Shown: piece after piece, positions 7,032 through 32,420 of the stretch
How the letters are laid out: each line of letters begins with the position of its first letter
How positions within the stretch are numbered: position 1 is the stretch's first letter
Assembly (NCBI RefSeq): GCF_011045215.1
Contig: NZ_CP049201.1
Reading direction: 5' to 3' (one strand)
Length of the DNA: 64,000 nt
Source: Escherichia coli
Lineage (GTDB): Bacteria > Pseudomonadota > Gammaproteobacteria > Enterobacterales > Enterobacteriaceae
Notes under the pieces: model-generated
Database searches by the model: none
Told to the model about the DNA's origin: nothing
The model's input: the letters and a program-made list of their open reading frames with translations, nothing else
Made by a program: the position numbers and the translations under genes

Positions 7032-8846
7032 CTACTCTCCCTGTTGTCTGGCTGACGGCAGTTTGGCCGCTTTATTAACATCATACCACCAGGTATCGAT
7101 ACCCAGACTGTAAACAGGGCGCACAGCGGGTTGGGAGAATTTATCCCACCAGGCGAGACGGTCTTCCGCCATGTACCACATTGGCAGCATGTAATAATTC
7201 CACGTTAATACGCGATCCAGTGCTCGCCCTAACGGCAGTAATTTTTCTTTATTTCCCTGCGCGGCAATAATTTGGTTGATCAGCGAGTCGATAACCGGGC
7301 TTTGCACGCCGGGGGCATTATAAGTGGAATTGATATATTCCGATGACCAGGAAATCTGTAAATCGGAACTGGGCCACGGCATCGCCCGCCATACGCGCGG
7401 CATCATATCATAGTCGCGACTGCGCATGCGGTTGGTGATTTGCGAGTTATCCACCTTGCGAATGTCCATGTTGATACCCAGCCGTTGCAGGCTGTGCTGG
7501 AACGGCAATACCCACTGACTATTGCTGCTTGCAGGAAGCAATAATTCAAAGCTGAGCGGCTGACCCGTAGTGGCATTAACGCGTTGCTGACCTTTCAGCA
7601 CCCAGCCCGCTTCGTTGAGAAGTTTGTCGGCTTTTAACAGGTTGTCACGATCGTAGCCATCGCCTTTCGATACCGGCGGCTGGTAGATTTGTGTGAAGAC
7701 TTCTGACGGTAGATCTTTTTTCATTGGTGCCAGAAGCACCAGCTCCGCGGCGTCAGGGTAATTTCTGGCCGCGTATTCGGTATTCTGAAAATAACTGTTC
7801 GTGCGACTCCAGGCATTGTAAAACAACGCCTTGTTCATCCATTCAAAGTCAAAGGCGAGGGTGATTGCTTCCCGGACCCGGCGATCGCTGAATACCGGAC
7901 GTTGGATATTAAACGCCAGCCAGCGCGTATCCTGGGCTGATTCGTTCTTTTGCTCATCTTTGATGATGTATCTTTTATCGAAATTTTTACCGGTATAACG
8001 CGTGGCCCAGTTTTTAGCGTCGTTTTCCATACGCAAATCAAAGGCACCTGCTTTAAACGCTTCAAAGGCGACATTATCATCGAGGTAATAATCGTAGCGA
8101 ATGGTGTCGAAATTCCAGCGTCCACGGTTTACCGGTAAGTTTGCTGCCCAGTAATCTTTCACGCGGGAATAGACAATATTTTGCCCCATTTTCCAGGACG
8201 TAATGCGGTACGGACCACTGGCAAGCGGAGGCGTGGCGAGCGGATCGCTAAGTTTCTGATCCTTCCAGTACTTTTCTGGAAATACCGGCAGCGAAAACAG
8301 ACTCAACATATCTTCTTTGCCGGGTTTAGCTAACTCAATGCGCACGGTTAACGGCGCAATGGCTTTGACGGTGGTGCCTTTGTAGACCAGACGAAATTGC
8401 GGCACGCCTTCGGTCATAAATTTTTGAAAAGTAAACTCTACATCGCGGGCAGTAATGGGCGAACCATCATGAAAACGGGCGCGCGGATTAATAGCGACCT
8501 CCACCCAGGAATAATCGTCAGCATAGCGTGCACTTTCAGCAATCAGCGGGTAATAACTGCCTGGTTCGTCATCGGAAGTCGTAAATAGCGTGTCGTACAG
8601 CTGCTCGGTGCGTGCGCCCGGGTTGCCGCGCAGTGCATAGCGGTTGAAATTATCGAAGGTACCGAGGGCTGACAACGTTATCTGCCCACCTTTTGGCGCG
8701 GCGGGGTTCACATAATCAAAATGGTTGAAATTAAACGCGTACCGGGGTTCGCCCAGCACGGCAAAGGCATAGCTTTCCTTGATAGCCTGCGCCTGCGCAC
8801 CAAAGGTGAACAGAGCGATAAACAGCAGCAGTATGCGCACAATCAT
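7032..8846 (-). CDS. yejA: Periplasmic oligopeptide/microcin C-binding protein YejA (ABC transporter substrate-binding protein)
   Basis: ORF 7032..8852 (606 aa); likely start two codons in (MIVRILLLFIALFTFGAQA, a signal peptide), giving 604 aa. SBP family 5 features. Confidence 0.9.
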   Translation of the reverse strand: MIVRILLLFIALFTFGAQAQAIKESYAFAVLGEPRYAFNFNHFDYVNPAAPKGGQITLSALGTFDNFNRYALRGNPGARTEQLYDTLFTTSDDEPGSYYPLIAESARYADDYSWVEVAINPRARFHDGSPITARDVEFTFQKFMTEGVPQFRLVYKGTTVKAIAPLTVRIELAKPGKEDMLSLFSLPVFPEKYWKDQKLSDPLATPPLASGPYRITSWKMGQNIVYSRVKDYWAANLPVNRGRWNFDTIRYDYYLDDNVAFEAFKAGAFDLRMENDAKNWATRYTGKNFDKRYIIKDEQKNESAQDTRWLAFNIQRPVFSDRRVREAITLAFDFEWMNKALFYNAWSRTNSYFQNTEYAARNYPDAAELVLLAPMKKDLPSEVFTQIYQPPVSKGDGYDRDNLLKADKLLNEAGWVLKGQQRVNATTGQPLSFELLLPASSNSQWVLPFQHSLQRLGINMDIRKVDNSQITNRMRSRDYDMMPRVWRAMPWPSSDLQISWSSEYINSTYNAPGVQSPVIDSLINQIIAAQGNKEKLLPLGRALDRVLTWNYYMLPMWYMAEDRLAWWDKFSQPAVRPVYSLGIDTWWYDVNKAAKLPSARQQGE

Positions 8847-21675: not shown

Positions 21676-21914
21676 GTGTTCATGTTCTGTGCATCCCGTC
21701 ACAAATTCCTCGCTTTTGTAATTCAGGCATTTAATCGCATTTTGTGAGCCTGCTCAAATCTGCCCGCTTTGCCTCTCTGGCGGCAATTTACTTTACGTAA
21801 AACATGCATACTATGAGCACATGTTTAAATATGAACACATGTTTAAACCGTCTTTGCAGTATCTATATCCTTGTGGATTGACAGGGTTGGTAATTTTTTA
21901 CCAGAGGACGTGCT

Positions 21915-22856
21915 ATGCGCGAAAAGGATTATGTCGTAATTATAGGTTCGGCGAATATTGATGTCGCCGGATATTCACATGAATCATTAAATTATGCGGA
22001 TTCAAATCCAGGTAAAATAAAATTTACGCCTGGTGGAGTAGGGCGAAATATTGCACAAAATCTGGCGTTGCTGGGTAACAAAGCCTGGCTACTGAGCGCA
22101 GTAGGCAGTGATTTTTATGGCCAATCGCTGCTAACGCAAACCAATCAATCTGGCGTTTATGTCGATAAATGCCTGATTATGCCGGGAGAAAATACGTCGA
22201 GCTATTTATCATTACTCGATAATACCGGTGAAATGCTGGTTGCTATAAATGACATGAATATTAGCAACGCTATTACAGCTGAATATCTCGCACAGCACCG
22301 TGAATTTATTCAGAGGGCAAAGGTCATTGTCGCGGACTGTAATATCAGTGAAGAGGCACTGGCATGGATTCTGGATAATGCCGCCAACGTACCCGTATTT
22401 GTCGATCCGGTTTCAGCGTGGAAATGTGTCAAAGTGCGCGACCGTCTAAATCAGATCCACACTCTGAAGCCAAACCGCCTTGAAGCGGAAACCCTGAGTG
22501 GGATAGCGCTGTCAGGGCGTGAAGATGTGGCAAAGGTTGCCGCCTGGTTCCATCAACATGGCCTGAACCGACTGGTATTGAGCATGGGCGGCGACGGCGT
22601 TTATTACAGTGATATCAGCGGTGAAAGTGGTTGGTCTGCGCCGATCAAAACCAATGTTATTAATGTTACCGGAGCGGGCGATGCCATGATGGCGGGACTT
22701 GCTTCGTGTTGGGTAGACGGAATGCCGTTTGCCGAATCTGTTCGTTTCGCACAGGGATGTTCGTCAATGGCGCTCTCCTGTGAATACACCAATAACCCCG
22801 ATTTATCGATTGCCAACGTTATATCGTTAGTGGAGAACGCAGAATGTCTGAATTAA
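21915..22856 (+). CDS. psuK: Pseudouridine kinase PsuK (YeiC), PfkB family
   Basis: 313-aa ORF; PfkB motifs (GGVGRNIAQNLALLG, GAGDAMMAG). Confidence 0.88.
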   Translation: MREKDYVVIIGSANIDVAGYSHESLNYADSNPGKIKFTPGGVGRNIAQNLALLGNKAWLLSAVGSDFYGQSLLTQTNQSGVYVDKCLIMPGENTSSYLSLLDNTGEMLVAINDMNISNAITAEYLAQHREFIQRAKVIVADCNISEEALAWILDNAANVPVFVDPVSAWKCVKVRDRLNQIHTLKPNRLEAETLSGIALSGREDVAKVAAWFHQHGLNRLVLSMGGDGVYYSDISGESGWSAPIKTNVINVTGAGDAMMAGLASCWVDGMPFAESVRFAQGCSSMALSCEYTNNPDLSIANVISLVENAECLN

Positions 22857-23782
22857 AAATTTCCCCTGAATTATTACAAATTTCCCCGGAAGTGCAGGAC
22901 GCTTTAAAAAACAAAAAACCGGTTGTGGCGCTGGAATCGACCATTATTTCTCACGGGATGCCGTTCCCACAAAATGCCCAGACCGCAATTGAAGTTGAAG
23001 AAACTATTCGTAAACAGGGCGCTGTACCTGCCACTATCGCCATTATTGGCGGCGTGATGAAAGTTGGTTTAAGCAAAGAAGAAATTGAATTACTGGGTCG
23101 TGAAGGGCATAACGTGACCAAAGTTAGTCGTCGCGATTTACCTTTTGTTGTTGCCGCCGGAAAAAATGGCGCAACCACTGTGGCTTCAACGATGATTATT
23201 GCGGCGCTTGCCGGAATTAAAGTATTTGCCACCGGGGGAATTGGTGGTGTGCATCGCGGGGCGGAACATACCTTCGATATTTCTGCCGATTTGCAAGAAC
23301 TGGCAAATACTAATGTCACCGTTGTTTGTGCCGGGGCGAAATCTATTCTCGATTTAGGATTAACCACTGAGTATTTAGAAACCTTCGGTGTGCCGTTAAT
23401 TGGCTATCAGACTAAAGCGCTGCCTGCGTTTTTCTGCCGTACCAGCCCGTTTGACGTCAGCATTCGTCTCGACAGCGCCAGTGAAATTGCCCGTGCAATG
23501 GCGGTGAAATGGCAAAGCGGGCTGAACGGTGGCCTCGTGGTAGCGAACCCGATCCCGGAACAGTTTGCGATGCCAGAACACACTATCAATGCGGCGATCG
23601 ATCAGGCGGTAGCTGAAGCTGAAGCGCAGGGTGTTATTGGTAAAGAAAGTACGCCATTCCTGCTGGCGCGCGTTGCTGAACTGACCGGCGGTGACAGCCT
23701 GAAATCCAACATTCAACTGGTGTTCAACAACGCCATTCTGGCGAGTGAAATTGCCAAAGAATACCAGCGTCTCGCGGGTTAA
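22844..23782 (+). CDS. psuG: Pseudouridine-5'-phosphate glycosidase PsuG (YeiN)
   Basis: 312-aa ORF overlapping the psuK 3' end by 13 nt; IndA/PsuG-family sequence. Confidence 0.88.
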   Translation: MSELKISPELLQISPEVQDALKNKKPVVALESTIISHGMPFPQNAQTAIEVEETIRKQGAVPATIAIIGGVMKVGLSKEEIELLGREGHNVTKVSRRDLPFVVAAGKNGATTVASTMIIAALAGIKVFATGGIGGVHRGAEHTFDISADLQELANTNVTVVCAGAKSILDLGLTTEYLETFGVPLIGYQTKALPAFFCRTSPFDVSIRLDSASEIARAMAVKWQSGLNGGLVVANPIPEQFAMPEHTINAAIDQAVAEAEAQGVIGKESTPFLLARVAELTGGDSLKSNIQLVFNNAILASEIAKEYQRLAG

Positions 23783-23875
23783 TTTCTGACGGGCAGAAAG
23801 CCGTCGCCCGTACTCATCAAACATACCAAAACCTGGCGCTGACGCCGGGTTTACTGGCATGAAGGGAAAATCATT

Positions 23876-25126
23876 ATGGACATAATGAGAAGTGTTGTGG
23901 GGATGGTGGTGTTACTGGCAATAGCATTTCTGTTGTCGGTAAATAAAAAGAGCATCAGTTTGCGCACGGTTGGAGCCGCACTGCTGCTGCAAATCGCTAT
24001 TGGTGGCATCATGCTCTATTTTCCGCCGGGAAAATGGGCTGTAGAACAGGCGGCATTAGGCGTTCATAAAGTGATGTCTTACAGTGATGCCGGTAGCGCC
24101 TTCATTTTTGGTTCGCTGGTCGGGCCGAAAATGGATGTCCTCTTTGACGGTGCGGGTTTTATCTTCGCCTTTCGCGTACTCCCGGCGATTATCTTCGCCA
24201 CTGCGCTCATTAGTCTGCTGTACTACATTGGCGTGATGGGGCTGCTGATTCGCATCCTTGGCAGCATTTTCCAGAAAGCCCTCAACATCAGCAAAATCGA
24301 ATCTTTTGTTGCGGTTACCACTATTTTCCTCGGGCAAAATGAGATCCCGGCGATCGTTAAACCGTTTATCGATCGCATGAATCGCAACGAGTTGTTTACC
24401 GCAATTTGTAGCGGGATGGCGTCCATTGCGGGTTCGATGATGATTGGTTATGCCGGAATGGGCGTACCAATTGACTACCTGTTGGCGGCATCGCTGATGG
24501 CGATCCCCGGCGGTATTTTGTTTGCACGTATTCTTAGTCCGGCAACCGAGCCTTCGCAGGTCACATTTGAAAATCTGTCGTTCAGTGAAACGCCGCCAAA
24601 AAGCTTTATCGAAGCGGCGGCGAGCGGTGCGATGACCGGGTTGAAAATCGCCGCCGGTGTGGCGACGGTGGTAATGGCGTTTGTCGCAATTATTGCGCTG
24701 ATTAATGGCATTATCGGCGGAATTGGCGGCTGGTTTGGTTTTACCAATGCTTCTCTGGAAAGTATTTTTGGCTATGTGCTGGCACCGCTGGCGTGGATCA
24801 TGGGTGTGGACTGGAGTGATGCCAACCTTGCGGGTAGCCTGATTGGGCAGAAACTGGCGATTAACGAATTCGTCGCTTACCTGAGTTTCTCCCCATACCT
24901 GCAAACGGGCGGTACGCTGGAAGTGAAAACCATTGCGATTATCTCCTTTGCGCTTTGTGGTTTTGCTAACTTTGGTTCTATCGGTGTTGTCGTTGGGGCA
25001 TTTTCGGCTATTTCGCCAAAACGTGCACCGGAAATCGCTCAGCTTGGTTTACGGGCGCTGGCAGCAGCAACGCTTTCCAACCTGATGAGCGCGACCATTG
25101 CCGGGTTCTTTATTGGTTTAGCTTGA
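23876..25126 (+). CDS. psuT: Nucleoside (pseudouridine) transporter PsuT (YeiM), NupC/CNT family
   Basis: 416-aa polytopic ORF; paralogous to nupX in this window (mostly identical alignment by eye). Confidence 0.88.
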   Translation: MDIMRSVVGMVVLLAIAFLLSVNKKSISLRTVGAALLLQIAIGGIMLYFPPGKWAVEQAALGVHKVMSYSDAGSAFIFGSLVGPKMDVLFDGAGFIFAFRVLPAIIFATALISLLYYIGVMGLLIRILGSIFQKALNISKIESFVAVTTIFLGQNEIPAIVKPFIDRMNRNELFTAICSGMASIAGSMMIGYAGMGVPIDYLLAASLMAIPGGILFARILSPATEPSQVTFENLSFSETPPKSFIEAAASGAMTGLKIAAGVATVVMAFVAIIALINGIIGGIGGWFGFTNASLESIFGYVLAPLAWIMGVDWSDANLAGSLIGQKLAINEFVAYLSFSPYLQTGGTLEVKTIAIISFALCGFANFGSIGVVVGAFSAISPKRAPEIAQLGLRALAAATLSNLMSATIAGFFIGLA

Positions 25127-25193: not shown

Positions 25194-25853
25194 TTACTGC
25201 ATCATCCCGGAGAATTTATTCTCCGGGTCCATCTCCAGCGCCAGCCCTGACAACTGCTTTCTGTTTTTAATTAGATATCCTTTCTTGCTTTTAATTAATA
25301 AACCGTCGTGAATGAATTGCGCAAGAACATATAAAAGATGTCGATAAGAAACGCCTAAATACTCTGCCGCTTGCGTATGCTTTTCGTGATAAAGATCACC
25401 TTCTTGTGAGAGTAATATAAATGCTGCCAGGCGATTCACTAACGGAAATGATTGATTCTGAGTTAAAGAAACAATATTACGATAATTTTTATGACTTAAG
25501 GTGACGCAAAGTTTTCGTAAAAATAGGGTATCGTTTAATAACAGCGGACGGTAATGTTTCATAGGGAGCGCAAGGCACCAACACTCTTCAATCGCCTGTA
25601 CTGCACGTGGTTCATGGTCTTTATCGATTAACTCAATCTCGCCAATAAAACAGGGGGCGGCAAAGAAATCGATCAGCGACACGCGACCATTAGCTAGCGT
25701 GGCGTAAAGCCTGGCGCGGCCTCGCGTCAGGTAAAACAGCCAGGACGGCTGTTGCCCTTCCTGCACAATGTAGTCACGCGCTAAAAAATGAAACAGCCGC
25801 GTATCGGCTGAAACATCCGTTAAAAAGCAATCCTTAAACGCGGATTCACTCAT
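25194..25853 (-). CDS. yeiL: Crp/Fnr-family transcriptional regulator YeiL
   Basis: ORF 25194..25892; start at the internal ATG ([11 protein letters not shown]...), giving 219 aa; cNMP-binding-like N-terminus and C-terminal HTH. Confidence 0.85.
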
Positions 25854-26021
25854 CAATTGCAGCTTAAGATCATTATTGTGGATTTCTTTCACGATGTTTA
25901 TCCGCTATGAGATTTCTCATATTTAGCATACGTACGCTGTTGTTAAGATTCAATCATCGGCCCGGTCGAATTTTCTTTGCTGTAGAAAAAATAACGCAAC
26001 TGGAAACAGAGGAAATAAACA

Positions 26022-26963
26022 ATGGAAAAGAGAAAAATTATTCTGGATTGTGATCCGGGTCATGATGATGCTATTGCAATGATGATGGCAGCGAAACATC
26101 CGGCAATAGATTTATTAGGCATCACTATTGTAGCGGGTAATCAGACGCTTGATAAAACATTAATTAATGGCCTGAATGTTTGCCAGAAACTGGAGATTAA
26201 TGTTCCGGTTTATGCGGGGATGCCGCAGCCCATTATGCGTCAACAAATCGTTGCCGATAATATTCACGGTGAAACCGGACTGGATGGCCCGGTATTCGAG
26301 CCGCTGACCCGCCAGGCAGAAAGCACTCATGCGGTGAAATACATCATTGATACCCTGATGGCAAGCGATGGCGATATCACTCTGGTGCCGGTTGGTCCGC
26401 TTTCAAATATCGCGGTGGCAATGCGTATGCAACCCGCGATCCTGCCCAAAATCCGTGAAATTGTGCTAATGGGCGGCGCTTACGGTACAGGCAACTTCAC
26501 GCCATCTGCCGAGTTCAACATCTTTGCTGACCCGGAAGCCGCACGCGTGGTGTTCACCTCTGGCGTTCCATTAGTGATGATGGGCCTCGATCTTACCAAC
26601 CAGACCGTTTGCACCCCGGACGTAATTGCTCGGATGGAAAGGGCAGGCGGCCCTGCCGGAGAGCTGTTCAGCGACATCATGAACTTCACTCTCAAAACGC
26701 AGTTCGAAAACTACGGCCTGGCTGGCGGCCCGGTGCACGACGCCACCTGCATCGGTTATCTGATTAACCCTGATGGCATTAAAACCCAGGAGATGTACGT
26801 CGAAGTGGACGTCAACAGTGGCCCTTGTTATGGGCGTACCGTCTGCGACGAGCTGGGCGTTCTTGGCAAGCCCGCTAATACCAAAGTCGGCATCACTATT
26901 GATACCGACTGGTTCTGGGGCTTAGTCGAAGAGTGCGTGCGCGGCTACATCAAAACCCATTAA
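26022..26963 (+). CDS. rihB: Pyrimidine-specific ribonucleoside hydrolase RihB (YeiK)
   Basis: 313-aa ORF with the inosine-uridine nucleoside hydrolase signature DCDPGHDDA near the N-terminus. Confidence 0.92.
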
Positions 26964-27062
26964 GTGTTGATAACAAGCCGGGCCGGTATCGCAAGATGCA
27001 GGCCTGGCTATTTCTGATGGGCAGAAAGCCGTCGCCCAATATGACATGAAGAGATAATCACT

Positions 27063-28313
27063 ATGGATGTCATGAGAAGTGTTCTGGGAATGGTGGTATT
27101 GCTGACGATTGCGTTTTTACTGTCAGTAAACAAGAAGAAGATCAGCCTGCGTACCGTTGGCGCGGCGTTAGTGTTACAGGTCGTGATTGGCGGCATTATG
27201 CTTTGGTTACCGCCAGGGCGTTGGGTCGCTGAAAAAGTCGCTTTTGGCGTGCATAAAGTGATGGCGTACAGCGACGCGGGTAGCGCATTTATCTTCGGTT
27301 CTCTGGTCGGACCGAAAATGGACACCTTATTTGATGGCGCAGGATTTATCTTTGGTTTCAGAGTATTACCGGCAATTATCTTCGTCACCGCGCTGGTGAG
27401 TATTCTCTATTACATCGGTGTGATGGGGATCTTAATTCGCATTCTCGGCGGTATCTTCCAGAAAGCATTAAATATCAGCAAGATCGAGTCATTCGTCGCG
27501 GTCACTACCATTTTCCTCGGGCAAAACGAAATTCCGGCAATCGTCAAACCCTTTATCGATCGGCTGAATCGCAATGAATTATTTACAGCGATTTGTAGTG
27601 GCATGGCCTCAATTGCCGGTTCGACAATGATTGGTTACGCCGCACTGGGCGTACCTGTGGAATATTTGCTGGCGGCATCGTTAATGGCGATCCCAGGCGG
27701 GATCTTGTTTGCCCGCCTGTTAAGCCCGGCTACGGAATCTTCGCAGGTTTCTTTTAATAACCTCTCTTTCACCGAAACACCGCCAAAAAGCATTATTGAA
27801 GCCGCCGCGACAGGGGCAATGACCGGGCTGAAAATCGCTGCGGGTGTGGCAACAGTGGTGATGGCATTTGTTGCCATCATTGCGTTAATTAACGGTATTA
27901 TCGGCGGCGTTGGCGGCTGGTTTGGTTTTGAACATGCCTCGCTGGAGTCCATTTTAGGTTATCTGCTGGCCCCACTGGCGTGGGTAATGGGTGTTGACTG
28001 GACTGATGCGAATCTTGCCGGGAGTTTGATTGGACAGAAACTGGCAATAAATGAATTTGTCGCTTATCTCAATTTCTCACCCTATCTGCAAACGGCTGGC
28101 ACTCTGGATGCTAAAACCGTGGCGATTATTTCCTTCGCGTTGTGCGGTTTCGCTAACTTTGGTTCTATCGGGGTGGTGGTGGGGGCGTTTTCTGCGGTTG
28201 CGCCACACCGTGCGCCGGAAATCGCCCAGCTTGGTTTACGCGCGCTGGCGGCGGCGACACTTTCTAACCTGATGAGTGCCACCATTGCCGGGTTCTTTAT
28301 TGGTTTAGCGTAG
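27063..28313 (+). CDS. nupX: Nucleoside transporter NupX (YeiJ), NupC/CNT family
   Basis: 416-aa ORF, collinear paralogue of psuT (MDVMRSVLGMVVLL... versus MDIMRSVVGMVVLL...). Confidence 0.88.
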   Translation: MDVMRSVLGMVVLLTIAFLLSVNKKKISLRTVGAALVLQVVIGGIMLWLPPGRWVAEKVAFGVHKVMAYSDAGSAFIFGSLVGPKMDTLFDGAGFIFGFRVLPAIIFVTALVSILYYIGVMGILIRILGGIFQKALNISKIESFVAVTTIFLGQNEIPAIVKPFIDRLNRNELFTAICSGMASIAGSTMIGYAALGVPVEYLLAASLMAIPGGILFARLLSPATESSQVSFNNLSFTETPPKSIIEAAATGAMTGLKIAAGVATVVMAFVAIIALINGIIGGVGGWFGFEHASLESILGYLLAPLAWVMGVDWTDANLAGSLIGQKLAINEFVAYLNFSPYLQTAGTLDAKTVAIISFALCGFANFGSIGVVVGAFSAVAPHRAPEIAQLGLRALAAATLSNLMSATIAGFFIGLA

Positions 28314-28327
28314 TGTGCGATTTATGA

Positions 28328-28361
28328 GCCGGATAAGATGCGGTCAAGCGTCGAATCCGGC
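28328..28361. repeat. REP (repetitive extragenic palindrome) element between nupX and yeiI
   Basis: gccggataagatgcggtcaagcgtcgaatccggc: imperfect palindrome of REP type between convergent genes. Confidence 0.6.
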
Positions 28362-28368
28362 AACATTG

Positions 28369-29457
28369 TTACACCATTGGCACTAATGAAAGCGCGTTAT
28401 CGGCAGACAGGGTAGGGTTGTTTAAGCTGCCGCTGGCGCGTGAAATTGCCGCGCAGGCCATCGCAAAACGGGCGCTGTCACGGAAATTGTTTCCTTCCAG
28501 AAAGCTATATACCAGGCCCGCCATAAAACCATCGTCAGCACCAAAACTGTCTACTGTCGTATGCGCTGGTGCGGTCAGCAAAAATTGTTCTCCATCCTTT
28601 TCGCTGCAATAAACTGACTCATCGGGCAAATAAACAAACAGTTGCTGAACACCTTGCTGATGCAACGCATTCACTGCAGCATTACGGTCAGCATCGCTGG
28701 TGATCGCCTGTCCCCATAAAATTTCCAGCTCCGGTAAAGTGGGTTTCAGGGTGTGAATATGCGCCAGCCAGTGTTTGATTTTGCCCGCTTTGAATTCTGA
28801 AACGGTATCGACAAACACCGGGATCTCACCAGCGAGGGTAAAGACCCATTCCAGCGCCTCGGCTGTCAGGTTGCAATCAGCCAGTACCACGCCCGCATGA
28901 CGAAGTAAATCGCGCGACCCGTTCAATAATTGCGGCGATAACTGTTCCAGCAGATGGGTATCGTTAATCGCCAACACGGTTTCATCGTCTCGATTGGCAA
29001 TTGCCAGATACGTCGATGTGCTTTGGCCATGTAAACGAACGCAGCCGGAGACATTCACGCCGGCGCGGCGCGTTTCTTCCAGGAGCATTTCGCCATAAAA
29101 GTCATCGCCAATCACTGAAAGCAAATGGACGTCACGGCCTAACAGCGCCAGATTGTGGGCGATGTTGCGTCCCACGCCGCCCGCTGAGCAATGAATTGTA
29201 CCGGGATGAGAAGCCGATTGCGGGTAACGGATATCCGCCATCCCGCGAATATCCATATTGATTGTCCCCACCACTACGCAGTATTCCTGCTCGGTGAGAA
29301 TGTAACCTTTGCCTTTAATCCGGCCTTTGCGCATTAAATCCATAATATGCGCCGCAACGCGCGAACGGCTGATTTGCAGCATGTCCGCAATTTCGTTCTG
29401 CTGAATCAGCGGGTTACGCCGTAAAATTGCAAGGATCTCCTTTTCCCGGTTATTCAT
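28369..29457 (-). CDS. yeiI: Putative HTH-fused PfkB-family sugar/nucleoside kinase YeiI
   Basis: 362-aa ORF; N-terminal HTH-like segment (EKEILAILRRNPLIQQNEIADMLQISRSRV), then a PfkB kinase domain sharing the GGVGRNIAHNLALLG motif with PsuK. Confidence 0.85.
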   Translation of the reverse strand: MNNREKEILAILRRNPLIQQNEIADMLQISRSRVAAHIMDLMRKGRIKGKGYILTEQEYCVVVGTINMDIRGMADIRYPQSASHPGTIHCSAGGVGRNIAHNLALLGRDVHLLSVIGDDFYGEMLLEETRRAGVNVSGCVRLHGQSTSTYLAIANRDDETVLAINDTHLLEQLSPQLLNGSRDLLRHAGVVLADCNLTAEALEWVFTLAGEIPVFVDTVSEFKAGKIKHWLAHIHTLKPTLPELEILWGQAITSDADRNAAVNALHQQGVQQLFVYLPDESVYCSEKDGEQFLLTAPAHTTVDSFGADDGFMAGLVYSFLEGNNFRDSARFAMACAAISRASGSLNNPTLSADNALSLVPMV

Positions 29458-29459
29458 CT

Positions 29460-30317
29460 TCAGGCTACCGCTTTTTCAGTTTGTTGCGCTTTCAGCCAGG
29501 CGATCTCTTCTGCCCAGATATCCGGGTTGATGGTTTCGAGGATCAGCGGAATGCCGTCGAAACGGTCGTCCTGCATGATCCAGCGGAACGCATCATGACC
29601 GATATTGCCTTCACCGAGGCTATGATGGCGGTCAACGCGGCTGCCAAAGGTGCTTTTCGCATCGTTAAGGTGCATCCCGCGCAGATACTTAAAGCCGACA
29701 GTACGGGCAAAATCCGCGAATGTTTTCTCGCATTCGGCTGGAGTACGCAAATCATACCCGGCAGCGAAAGCATGGCAGGTATCAATGCAGACGCCGACGC
29801 GGGATTTATCTTCCACGCCGTCGATAATCGCCGCGAGATGTTCGAATTTAAACCCTAAGTTACTGCCCTGACCGGCGGTGTTTTCTATCACCGCTGTCAC
29901 ACCTTGAGTTTTATCCAGCGCAATGTTGATGGATTCGGCAATACGCGCAAGGCAATCCTCTTCTGAAATCTGCATCAGATGGCTGCCAGGGTGGAAGTTG
30001 AGCAAAGAAAGCCCCAGCTGTTCGCAACGCTGCATTTCATCTATAAAGGCATCGCGCGATTTTTCCAGAGCTTCAGTGACCGGATGTCCGAGGTTAATCA
30101 GATAACTGTCGTGGGGAAGAATTTGCGCCGATGTGTAGTGATATTTTTCACAGGCGGCTTTGAATTCATCGATGGTTTGCGTCGTGAGCGGTGCGGCACG
30201 CCACTGACGTTGGTTTTTGGTGAACAAGGCAAACGCGGTTGCGTCGATTTCGGCGGCGCGAATTGCGGCATTTGCCAGACCGCCAGCAGCACTAACGTGC
30301 GCTCCAATGTATTTCAT
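29460..30317 (-). CDS. nfo: Endonuclease IV (AP endonuclease) Nfo
   Basis: 285-aa [20 protein letters not shown]...; TIM-barrel AP endonuclease family 2. Confidence 0.95.
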
Positions 30318-31538: not shown

Positions 31539-32420
31539 ATGCACATCACCCTCCGGCAGTTGGAAGTTTTTGCAGAAGTATTGAAAAGTGGATCAACCAC
31601 CCAGGCGTCGGTGATGCTGGCGTTGTCGCAATCAGCAGTGAGCGCAGCCTTGACCGACCTGGAAGGGCAGCTTGGCGTGCAACTGTTTGATCGCGTGGGG
31701 AAAAGACTGGTTGTTAATGAACACGGGCGGCTGCTCTATCCGCGTGCGTTGGCATTGCTTGAACAGGCGGTTGAAATCGAACAACTGTTTCGCGAAGACA
31801 ACGGCGCGATTCGTATCTATGCTAGTAGTACCATCGGTAACTACATTCTGCCTGCAGTTATCGCCCGTTATCGCCATGATTATCCGCAGTTGCCGATTGA
31901 ACTTAGCGTTGGGAATAGCCAGGACGTGATGCAAGCGGTGCTGGATTTCCGCGTTGATATTGGCTTTATTGAAGGACCGTGCCACAGCACTGAAATCATT
32001 TCTGAACCGTGGCTGGAAGACGAGCTGGTGGTTTTCGCCGCGCCGACTTCGCCGTTGGCCCGTGGTCCGGTCACCTTAGAACAGCTGGCCGCTGCGCCGT
32101 GGATCCTGCGTGAACGCGGTTCCGGCACGCGGGAGATTGTCGATTATCTGTTGCTGTCACATTTACCGAAGTTTGAGATGGCGATGGAATTAGGTAACTC
32201 CGAGGCAATCAAACATGCGGTGCGTCATGGGTTGGGAATTAGTTGCCTGTCGCGACGTGTGATTGAAGATCAATTGCAGGCAGGCACATTAAGTGAAGTT
32301 GCGGTCCCTCTGCCGCGCCTGATGCGTACGTTGTGGCGTATACATCATCGGCAAAAACACCTTTCCAACGCGCTACGGCGCTTTCTGGACTATTGCGATC
32401 CCGCAAATGTGCCGCGTTAA
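31539..32420 (+). CDS. yeiE: LysR-type transcriptional regulator YeiE
   Basis: 293-aa ORF; N-terminal LysR HTH ([22 protein letters not shown]), C-terminal substrate-binding domain. Confidence 0.9.

Follow-up and report, generated by a model that had tools for sequence, protein, structure and literature searches.

YeiI as a candidate pseudouridine-sensing repressor of the psuKGT operon in Escherichia coli

Why would Escherichia coli carry, a few genes away from its pseudouridine kinase PsuK, a second PsuK-like protein with a DNA-binding domain at its N terminus? The protein is YeiI, encoded in a 64-kb stretch of the E. coli chromosome (the window) that has a match in 5425 of 5426 complete genomes; yeiI itself is kept in 5420 of the 5426. 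The open reading frame (ORF) is annotated 'yeiI: sugar kinase', and since the gene and its two-domain build are already annotated, the raw observation is ordinary; the functional assignment made here is specific and apparently undescribed. An earlier note, made from the sequence of this stretch, held that the substrate and role of YeiI were undefined, and the protein is indeed still called uncharacterised (PMC9061257, PMC12506659). It appears as a hypothetical transcription factor in the list of PMC6055005, and the literature rejects the machine-learning call 'pseudouridine kinase' for it (PMC9061257, PMC12506659, PMC6055005). We propose that YeiI is probably a pseudouridine-sensing repressor of psuKGT that split from an ancestral kinase-repressor, for which 'PsuR' would be a possible name. 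Regulation of psuKGT by YeiI is the part that we consider quite likely; pseudouridine is its probable effector, and the loss of physiologically relevant kinase activity is an even call. The features of the gene are as follows.

28369 to 29457, minus strand: yeiI coding sequence, 362 residues, ATG start (ORF and translation); proposed pseudouridine-responsive psuKGT repressor
29299 to 29457, minus strand: winged helix-turn-helix (HTH) domain, residues 1-53, with recognition helix ISRSRVAAHIMDL (Pfam HTH_24)
28414 to 29286, minus strand: PfkB (PsuK-like) domain, residues 58-348, proposed ligand-sensing domain (Pfam PfkB)

A Pfam search found two domains in YeiI. HTH_24 covers residues 1-48 with E 1.2e-10 and 41.2 bits (cut-off 21.9), and PfkB covers residues 58-348 with E 2.5e-68 and 231 bits (cut-off 25.8). 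This bears out the earlier description of YeiI as a PsuK-like PfkB protein with an N-terminal HTH. The PfkB motif said to be common to YeiI and PsuK is also there, as GGVGRNIAHNLALLG in the former and GGVGRNIAQNLALLG in the latter, with 39% identity between the two proteins over 307 residues, and the di-glycine motif of the family (GGxGxN) reads GGVGRN at YeiI residues 93-98. On the NCBIfam models, YeiI scores 810 bits on its own equivalog, NF007416 'sugar kinase', and falls below the cut-off of the PsuK equivalog NF007355 (259 bits versus 540), a model on which PsuK itself reaches 714 bits. No ROK (PF00480) match was found in YeiI by Pfam at E <= 0.1. By fold and profile, then, YeiI is a member of the PfkB superfamily that lacks the NXXE motif, retains the GAGD motif in part and is not a PsuK equivalog. 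In the AlphaFold2 (AF2) model, which has a predicted local distance difference test score (pLDDT) of 87.7, the HTH consists of helices 3-14, 20-27 and 31-43 and a wing with short strands at residues 48 and 53, followed by a low-confidence linker at residues 53-56. Among solved structures, E. coli PsuK comes closest on either measure, as 7vkp in the sequence comparison (E 7.9e-67, residues 55-359) and as 7vtd in the fold comparison (Foldseek with the AF2 model, target template modelling (TM) score 0.95, root-mean-square deviation 2.0 A); target TM scores against ribokinase were 0.82-0.84, and the fold search returned no solved structure spanning the HTH and the kinase domain together.

The combination of these two domains is not peculiar to E. 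coli. A homologue search at E <= 1e-20 gave 740 proteins, and among the matches listed the full-length homologues all have HTH and PfkB, only truncated fragments lack the HTH, and every homologue bearing this HTH also bears a PfkB domain. We compared 80 loci, one genome per species, and located the homologues of the E. coli neighbour genes in each. Outside the YeiI-bearing enterics, psuG is directly preceded by a same-strand HTH-PfkB gene in 70 of 70 loci with intact flanks, from more than 25 genera; these include Serratia, Hafnia, Photorhabdus, Xenorhabdus, Gilliamella, Pasteurellaceae, Aeromonas and Shewanella, as well as Vibrio, Ferrimonas, Marinobacter, Neisseriales, Rhodoferax, Clostridia and a spirochaete. 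We take the HTH-PfkB protein of these loci to be the organism's pseudouridine kinase with a fused HTH, hereafter HTH-PsuK. The HTH is the best-conserved part of YeiI: in comparisons with the HTH-PsuK proteins of Serratia, Hafnia and Photorhabdus, identity is 70-75% over the HTH and 48-51% over the kinase domain, and the near-invariant recognition helix SRSxVAxHIMxL is shared. The fused proteins (Serratia, Photorhabdus, Shewanella, Vibrio, Aeromonas, Clostridia) thus have the architecture of YeiI, its recognition helix and a link to psuG, and are annotated as 'pseudouridine kinase' or 'PfkB family carbohydrate kinase' and uncharacterised. Unlike YeiI, which is encoded separately and has altered motifs, they keep the canonical NXXE, ATP loop and GAGD and are encoded by the first gene of the psu operon, and for these reasons they are presumably kinase and autorepressor in one.

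In the main locus comparison, an HTH-less psuK accompanied by a separate yeiI was found only in Escherichia, Citrobacter, Enterobacter, Klebsiella, Leclercia and Entomohabitans, in the order yeiE< yeiH> nfo> yeiI> <psuT <psuG <psuK, and YeiI is the sole HTH of this family seen in the enteric loci fetched. A separate observation concerns Xenorhabdus, where a second HTH-PfkB copy with canonical motifs occurs away from psuG (L085 6001-8532; also L026, L028, L029 and L032). This copy is divergent, with a shortened C-terminus (355 residues); in strain TH1 the gene after it encodes an IS605-type TnpB, and the copy may be the remnant of a disrupted psu operon.

If YeiI is a sensor, its kinase domain should be read residue by residue. 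We mapped residues in 44 cluster representatives of the YeiI clade against 49 canonical PsuK and HTH-PsuK sequences, using PsuK numbering and the residue roles described for E. coli PsuK (PMC9061257). In that enzyme Ser30, Asn143 and Lys170 are the hallmark of pseudouridine recognition, Asn14 and Asp16 contact the ribose, and Ser30 reads the pseudouridine-specific N1-H and triggers dimer closure. The ligand side of the site is retained, with N14, D16, S30, Y97, N112, N143 and K170 conserved in 43-44 of the 44 YeiI-clade sequences (N67, D69, S83, Y150, N165, N196 and K223 in YeiI numbering). On the phosphoryl-transfer side N187, S223, G225, G228, T252 and G255 are replaced in 42-44 of the 44 and canonical in 49 of the 49 others. 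Three of the altered sites are listed here.

28738 to 28740, minus strand: codon T240, with Thr in place of the NXXE Asn of PfkB proteins, KPNRLE to KPTLPE (N187T)
28615 to 28632, minus strand: codons 276-281, YLPDES, an acidic, glycine-poor loop in place of the PsuK large ATP loop SMGGDG
28531 to 28536, minus strand: codons D308-D309, where the GAGD anion-hole signature has become GADD (read from sequence)

The NXXE motif, which serves Mg2+ and phosphate handling in the PfkB family, reads TLPE in YeiI, with Asn changed to Thr in 42 of 44 clade members and Asn present in all 49 canonical sequences. The ATP loop SMGGDG has become Y/C-L-x-D-E-S (S223 to C, Y or W in 44/44; G225 to E, D, K or P; G228 to S, A or T in 43/44). 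Gly255 of GAGD is Asp in 44 of 44, versus 0 of 49 canonical sequences, with the catalytic D256 kept throughout the clade (44/44). Together, the clade's substitutions add 3-5 acidic side chains where the ATP phosphates sit. Compared with E. coli PsuK (YeiC; PDB 7vkp, 7vtd, 7vva), YeiI has the same fold, the GGVGRN motif and the contact set N14, D16, S30, Y97, N112, N143, K170 and D256, and it probably also has the beta-small-domain dimer with ligand-induced closure described for PsuK (PMC9061257). Unlike PsuK, it carries an extra 53-residue winged HTH, N187T, the YLPDES loop, G255D, N250D, M114T and D29A, lies outside the psu operon, scores below the NCBIfam PsuK cut-off and is no genetic replacement for the enzyme. 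The last point follows from the inability of a psuK mutant to use pseudouridine, as stated in PMC12506659 with reference to Preumont 2008.

Deeper relatives with the split arrangement have gone further. The Affinibrenneria protein (P0059) has GADE and KPS, and a metagenomic protein (P0104) has K185I, N187S, D256N and a GIDN signature, its PfkB score being 96 bits versus 231 for YeiI with the HTH score unchanged. The two genes each converge on psuT<psuG<HTH-less psuK without having nfo as a neighbor, and in both loci the best match to the dual-box operator described below stands in front of psuK. In an exhaustive search, the best 150 representatives included about 110 with the HTH, and decay of the catalytic site affected about 13 of the proteins with the HTH and none of the 29 without it. 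One of these proteins (P0183) has lost the catalytic residues, GAGD having become GAAS, and downstream of its gene come a terminator, a dual box and the operon of a canonical HTH-less PfkB protein, whose gene is clustered with that of a RihB-like hydrolase; we read this as an independent recurrence of the kinase/sensor split. The cluster at L087 180-5473 has no psuG: a gene for a catalytically dead HTH-PfkB protein, a terminator and a dual box are followed there by genes for a canonical PsuK-like kinase lacking the HTH, a PRAI-like protein, an Fe-alcohol dehydrogenase and a RihB-like nucleoside hydrolase. A regulator of this type may thus control another pathway of nucleoside breakdown.

The strongest competitor to a pure sensor is an active bifunctional protein, in which YeiI would be a PfkB kinase with an altered donor, metal or substrate, possibly a modified nucleoside related to pseudouridine, and would also regulate psuKGT through the boxes; we consider this unlikely. 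In its favor, K185, E190 and the equivalent of Asp256 are kept in 42-44 of the 44 clade members and the kinase domain is under purifying selection (ratio of nonsynonymous to synonymous divergence, dN/dS, of 0.12), so residual or altered catalysis is possible; the pocket changes M114T and D29A are not random but fixed, which is what a change of specificity would produce; and the fused relatives with canonical motifs are very probably bifunctional. However, the NXXE Asn, three ATP-loop positions and the anion-hole Gly are all replaced in a site made more acidic, the deeper members of the split arrangement have lost K185 and the catalytic Asp, YeiI does not reach the PsuK model cut-off, and a psuK mutant is unable to use pseudouridine (PMC12506659). 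The earlier suggestion of a kinase doubling as a DNA-binding regulator or ligand sensor therefore divides: the regulator and sensor idea has gained strength, and the kinase part, given the changed motifs for ATP and phosphoryl transfer, has lost it. The double role suits the fused proteins of other bacteria; YeiI itself is more likely a sensor only.

If YeiI is a regulator, where would it act? Upstream of fused HTH-psuK genes we found a palindromic box of the type AAACAnnTGTTT, present in two copies 18-19 bp apart, and a pair of the same kind stands in front of E. coli psuK.

21743 to 21758, strand not assigned: CRP-like site TGTGAgcctgcTCAAA upstream of the psuK promoter, by TGTGA-N6-TCA conservation
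21787 to 21814, plus strand: inferred psuK promoter, -35 TTTACT at 21787-21792, 16-nucleotide (nt) spacer, -10 TACTAT at 21809-21814
21815 to 21826, strand not assigned: box 1 of the operator proposed for YeiI, GAGCACATGTTT, adjoining the inferred psuK -10 on its downstream side
21833 to 21844, strand not assigned: box 2 of the operator proposed for YeiI, GAACACATGTTT, offset from box 1 by 18 bp
21915 to 25126, plus strand: psuK (21915-22856), psuG (22844-23782) and psuT (23876-25126), proposed target operon (ORFs and annotation)

The boxes occur 25-75 nt upstream of fused HTH-psuK in many unrelated bacteria, and 98 of them give the consensus aAACAnnTGTTt, in which C4 and G9 are present in 98 of 98. 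We scored every position of each 10-17 kb locus for a dual box and took the single best site. This site fell no more than 260 nt upstream of HTH-psuK in 43 of 71 loci, from 20 genera, where chance would place it there in about 1.7% per locus. In the enteric loci the best dual box was upstream of the HTH-less psuK in 9 of 9 and never upstream of yeiI, and the sole intergenic dual box in the 64-kb window is the one at the psuK promoter. Within the window, no box-like site was found near rihB, nupX, yeiL, nfo or yeiH. Three psuK-psuG loci without a nearby HTH-PfkB gene had no dual box; in one locus of this kind (L090, about 640-700) tandem repeats of CGATTA precede psuK where the dual box would be, a hint that another regulator acts there.

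When seven enteric psuK promoters are aligned, much of the sequence has diverged, and the boxes, the -35, the -10 and the CRP-like site stand out as conserved islands. The -35 and -10 are drawn from this conservation only, because they lie below the threshold of the consensus sigma-70 scan, which returned no site upstream of psuK. An Rfam search of the psuK leader matched nothing at the boxes, so that a known riboswitch or leader is unlikely there, and the half-site sequence, not just the pairing, is kept across phyla, which argues for a protein-binding DNA site rather than an RNA structure.

TGTGA-N6-TCA is invariant in the seven promoters, and E. coli has TGTGA-N6-TCAAA about 70 bp upstream of the inferred start. 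By its likeness to the known consensus TGTGA-N6-TCACA this is a putative CRP site, and it suggests catabolite control of psuKGT.

Several candidates were set aside. A second dual-box-like sequence, GAACAGGCGGTTGAAATCGAACAACTGTTT, lies at 31761-31790 inside the yeiE coding sequence of E. coli and E. albertii and is weak in Leclercia (12.5), and no high-scoring site was found at this position in Citrobacter, Enterobacter, Klebsiella or Entomohabitans; being strong in Escherichia only, it is probably the product of chance and coding conservation. Single boxes match at chance level in the window outside psuK and are uninformative. A change of the recognition helix from HIM to HIS went suggestively, but not consistently, with the deviant boxes of Aeromonas and Clostridia, as the Firmicute UBA3546 has HIS with near-canonical boxes, and was not used.

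Other features of these promoters are recorded here in their own right. In Serratia/Hafnia-type loci (L011, L014, L016, L019 and L022, about 8120-8165) an in-frame ATG inside box 1 would give a 372-residue form beginning MFKNKQVS; this form is present among the protein-search matches for these genera, so that the proposed operator overlaps an upstream in-frame start codon. A second conserved element, TTACGATCGCCTTCCCAA and variants, lies about 100 nt upstream of HTH-psuK (L011-L022, L021, L026-L032) and is common to the promoters of Serratia, Hafnia, Photorhabdus and Xenorhabdus. In the metagenomic relative L084, a second strong dual box, TAACACTTGACCACAAAAGAACAAGTGTTT, at 918-947 stands about 67 nt upstream of a 112-residue ORF without a significant Pfam match, which may be an extra member of the regulon.

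Another E. coli factor could in principle bind the psuK boxes, leaving YeiI as an orphan paralogue whose role is vestigial or lies elsewhere. E. coli has many domains of the HTH_24 type, and the occupant of the boxes is assigned here by comparison. Yet the boxes accompany HTH-PfkB genes across several phyla, and on comparison of the loci the HTH of the HTH-PfkB family is the only component common to all that bear boxes. The boxes are absent from the three psuK-psuG loci that have no such protein, every homologue with this HTH among the matches listed is also a PfkB protein, and yeiI is kept in nearly all E. coli genomes, under purifying selection, and diverges together with psuKGT. We regard this explanation as improbable.

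The last of these points, and the question of which neighbor YeiI serves, depend on the gene order and its history. The order in the window is psuK-psuG-psuT > / < yeiL / rihB-nupX > / < yeiI-nfo-yeiH / yeiE >, and yeiI is thus outside the psuG operon, on the opposite strand, after nfo and convergent to psuT (to nupX in this window). The neighbors nearest to yeiI are the following.

25194 to 28313, mixed strands: yeiL (minus), rihB (plus) and nupX (plus), the island between psuT and yeiI, context only
29460 to 30317, minus strand: nfo, directly upstream of yeiI with a 2-nt gap

The earlier note gave this order correctly, with yeiI co-directional with nfo and yeiH; it also paired YeiI with rihB-nupX, and that pairing does not survive the comparison. 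Among the fetched loci, yeiL-rihB-nupX lies between psuT and yeiI only in E. coli and Entomohabitans and is a lineage-specific insertion; yeiI is directly convergent to psuT in E. albertii, Citrobacter, Enterobacter, Klebsiella, Leclercia, Affinibrenneria and L084. In the sequence type 131 (ST131) genome examined, which has the divergent yeiI haplotype of about 2000 genomes, nupX is an annotated pseudogene remnant of 66 bp (L082 8833-8898), with rihB, yeiL and yeiI intact. The restriction of the island and the nupX remnant indicate that yeiI has the psu operon as its conserved partner rather than rihB-nupX. That YeiI is instead a kinase and regulator of the adjacent rihB-nupX module, or of its own nfo-yeiH unit, is very improbable, since physical adjacency in the window and co-orientation with nfo and yeiH are set against an island missing between psuT and yeiI in the relatives just named, a nupX reduced to a remnant beside an intact yeiI, no candidate operator near any of these genes, and no nfo adjacency in Affinibrenneria and L084.

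Divergence within E. coli points to the same partner. The species has two deeply diverged yeiI haplotypes: one is found in about 3360 genomes (>=95% nucleotide identity) and the other in about 2012 (about 80.6%), with almost none between. Comparing a genome of the window type with the ST131 genome (L082), we obtained synonymous divergence (dS) of 0.98 for yeiI, 1.34 for psuK, 0.61 for psuG and 0.59 for psuT, compared with 0.03-0.19 for nfo, yeiH, rihB and yeiL. These values of 0.6-1.3 versus 0.03-0.19 imply that yeiI and psuKGT share an evolutionary history unlike that of the genes between and beside them, and suggest that allelic replacement or recombination in the distant past affected the psu genes and yeiI only. 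Between the haplotypes dN/dS is 0.10 for yeiI, 0.044 for the HTH and 0.116 for the kinase domain; with both domains so low, we conclude that both are functional. Purifying selection is evident in psuKGT as well as in yeiI. The boxes and the YeiI signature residues are present in both haplotypes. Separately, the ST131 YeiI (L082 9001-10089) carries a Cys at position 64, where all 27 aligned sequences otherwise have an invariant glycine (VVVGxxNMD), and this is possibly a strain-specific defect.

As for the expression of yeiI, its start lies 2 nt past the nfo stop codon (TGAAGATG), and this tight junction is conserved in Escherichia, Citrobacter, Enterobacter, Klebsiella and Leclercia. A scan of the minus strand between nfo and yeiI found no terminator-like site, and co-transcription or translational coupling of the two genes is probable. 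The nfo>yeiI spacer has a listed sigma-70 peak from genomic systematic evolution of ligands by exponential enrichment (PMC3946193). Scanning for promoters and terminators around yeiI, nfo and yeiH brought up no more than is expected of shuffled sequence, and an internal nfo candidate on the minus strand (29778-29751) was dropped as no better than chance. Between the convergent stops of nupX and yeiI there is an imperfect 14-nt inverted repeat, GCCGGATAAGATGC / GCGTCGAATCCGGC, at 28328-28361, which resembles a repetitive extragenic palindromic (REP) element.

We hypothesize that YeiI, like PsuK, would dimerize through the beta-sheet small domain, so that the two N-terminal winged HTH domains of the dimer would sit on the two AAACAnnTGTTT-type palindromes at 21815-21826 and 21833-21844. 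Because the boxes lie directly after the psuK -10 and would overlap the transcription start, binding there would block psuK transcription. Pseudouridine would bind the PsuK-like pocket, in which all polar contacts, including the Ser that reads N1-H, are kept. Ligand binding closes the PsuK dimer from about 66 A to 51 A (PMC9061257), and the same closure in YeiI would reposition the HTH domains and free the operator. The ancestor would have been a bifunctional HTH-PsuK, kinase and autorepressor, which we presume is still the form in most bacteria that carry it. After a gene duplication in Enterobacteriaceae and some relatives, the operon copy would have shed its HTH and kept catalysis, giving PsuK, and the other copy would have kept the HTH and the ligand pocket as its ATP and phosphoryl-transfer motifs changed, giving YeiI. 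YeiI would then sense pseudouridine without consuming it.

Several points weigh against this model. What the sequences show directly is the domain structure, the synteny, the operator motif with its positions, the residue patterns and purifying selection; DNA binding and repression by YeiI, pseudouridine as the inducer and the loss of kinase activity are deduced from these by comparison throughout, and the position of the boxes relative to the psuK transcription start depends on the inferred promoter. The box motif was defined after inspection of the sequences, 28 of the 71 loci failed the strict dual-box scan, with the Aeromonas and Clostridia boxes deviant but recognisable, and the box and HTH scans covered only the 64-kb window and the fetched loci. 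The retention of K185, E190 and the catalytic Asp counts against a dead kinase, and M114T and D29A, which lie at the base pocket and are fixed in the YeiI clade, could mean a ligand other than pseudouridine. In a neighbour-joining tree the YeiI clade falls just outside the Enterobacterales PsuK group and is not sister to enteric PsuK. Given this placement, and since a long stem may distort the position of YeiI, we make no claim on the exact node of the duplication.

The proposed mode of action has precedents in unrelated folds. The ROK repressors NagC and Mlc combine an N-terminal winged HTH with a non-phosphorylating sensor of sugar-kinase fold and have active kinase paralogues in the same genome; they work as we propose for YeiI, but their fold is ROK/ASKHA rather than PfkB/ribokinase and YeiI is not a member of their family. 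In BirA, NadR, PutA and NrtR a DNA-binding domain is fused to an enzyme or enzyme-derived domain, and a pathway metabolite controls the genes of the pathway. The fused HTH-PsuK resembles BirA and NadR, and YeiI resembles the NrtR-type regulators with a degenerate catalytic site. The co-repressor of BirA is a reaction product, whereas here the substrate is the proposed inducer, and the catalytic folds and ligands are unrelated; at the level of the HTH, YeiI has a weak resemblance to BirA (NCBIfam E 0.0017). The plant proteins FLN1 and FLN2 are PfkB-fold pseudokinases of the plastid RNA polymerase complex, without the canonical kinase motifs, and have a transcription-related role; unlike YeiI, they are eukaryotic and have no HTH and no known small-molecule sensing or operator binding.

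Incomplete coverage of the literature, with RegPrecise, RegulonDB and EcoCyc lying outside it, turned up no PfkB-fold ligand sensor fused to an HTH, no dual-box operator and no psuKGT regulator. The wider claim would be of an ancient system spanning several phyla, in which the pseudouridine kinase also represses its own operon, that has split more than once into an HTH-less kinase and a kinase-dead HTH sensor, with YeiI as the first described PfkB-fold pseudokinase-sensing transcription factor; to us this stands evenly poised.

If our reading of YeiI is correct, it would give a function to an E. coli y-gene left unassigned in the PsuK structural papers and in a 2025 review of enzyme function prediction, and would correct the tempting annotation of a 'second pseudouridine kinase'. 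It would define the missing regulator, operator and likely inducer of pseudouridine catabolism across many bacteria. Strains have been engineered to make pseudouridine (PMC10552469, PMC13090712); yeiI and its boxes would matter when psuG and psuK are manipulated, and the repressor-operator pair would be a pseudouridine biosensor for strains making pseudouridine for mRNA therapeutics. For the family, YeiI and PsuK would be a clean natural case in which a bifunctional enzyme-repressor has split its roles between an enzyme and a pseudoenzyme sensor, and living lineages still show the catalytic site at intermediate stages of decay.

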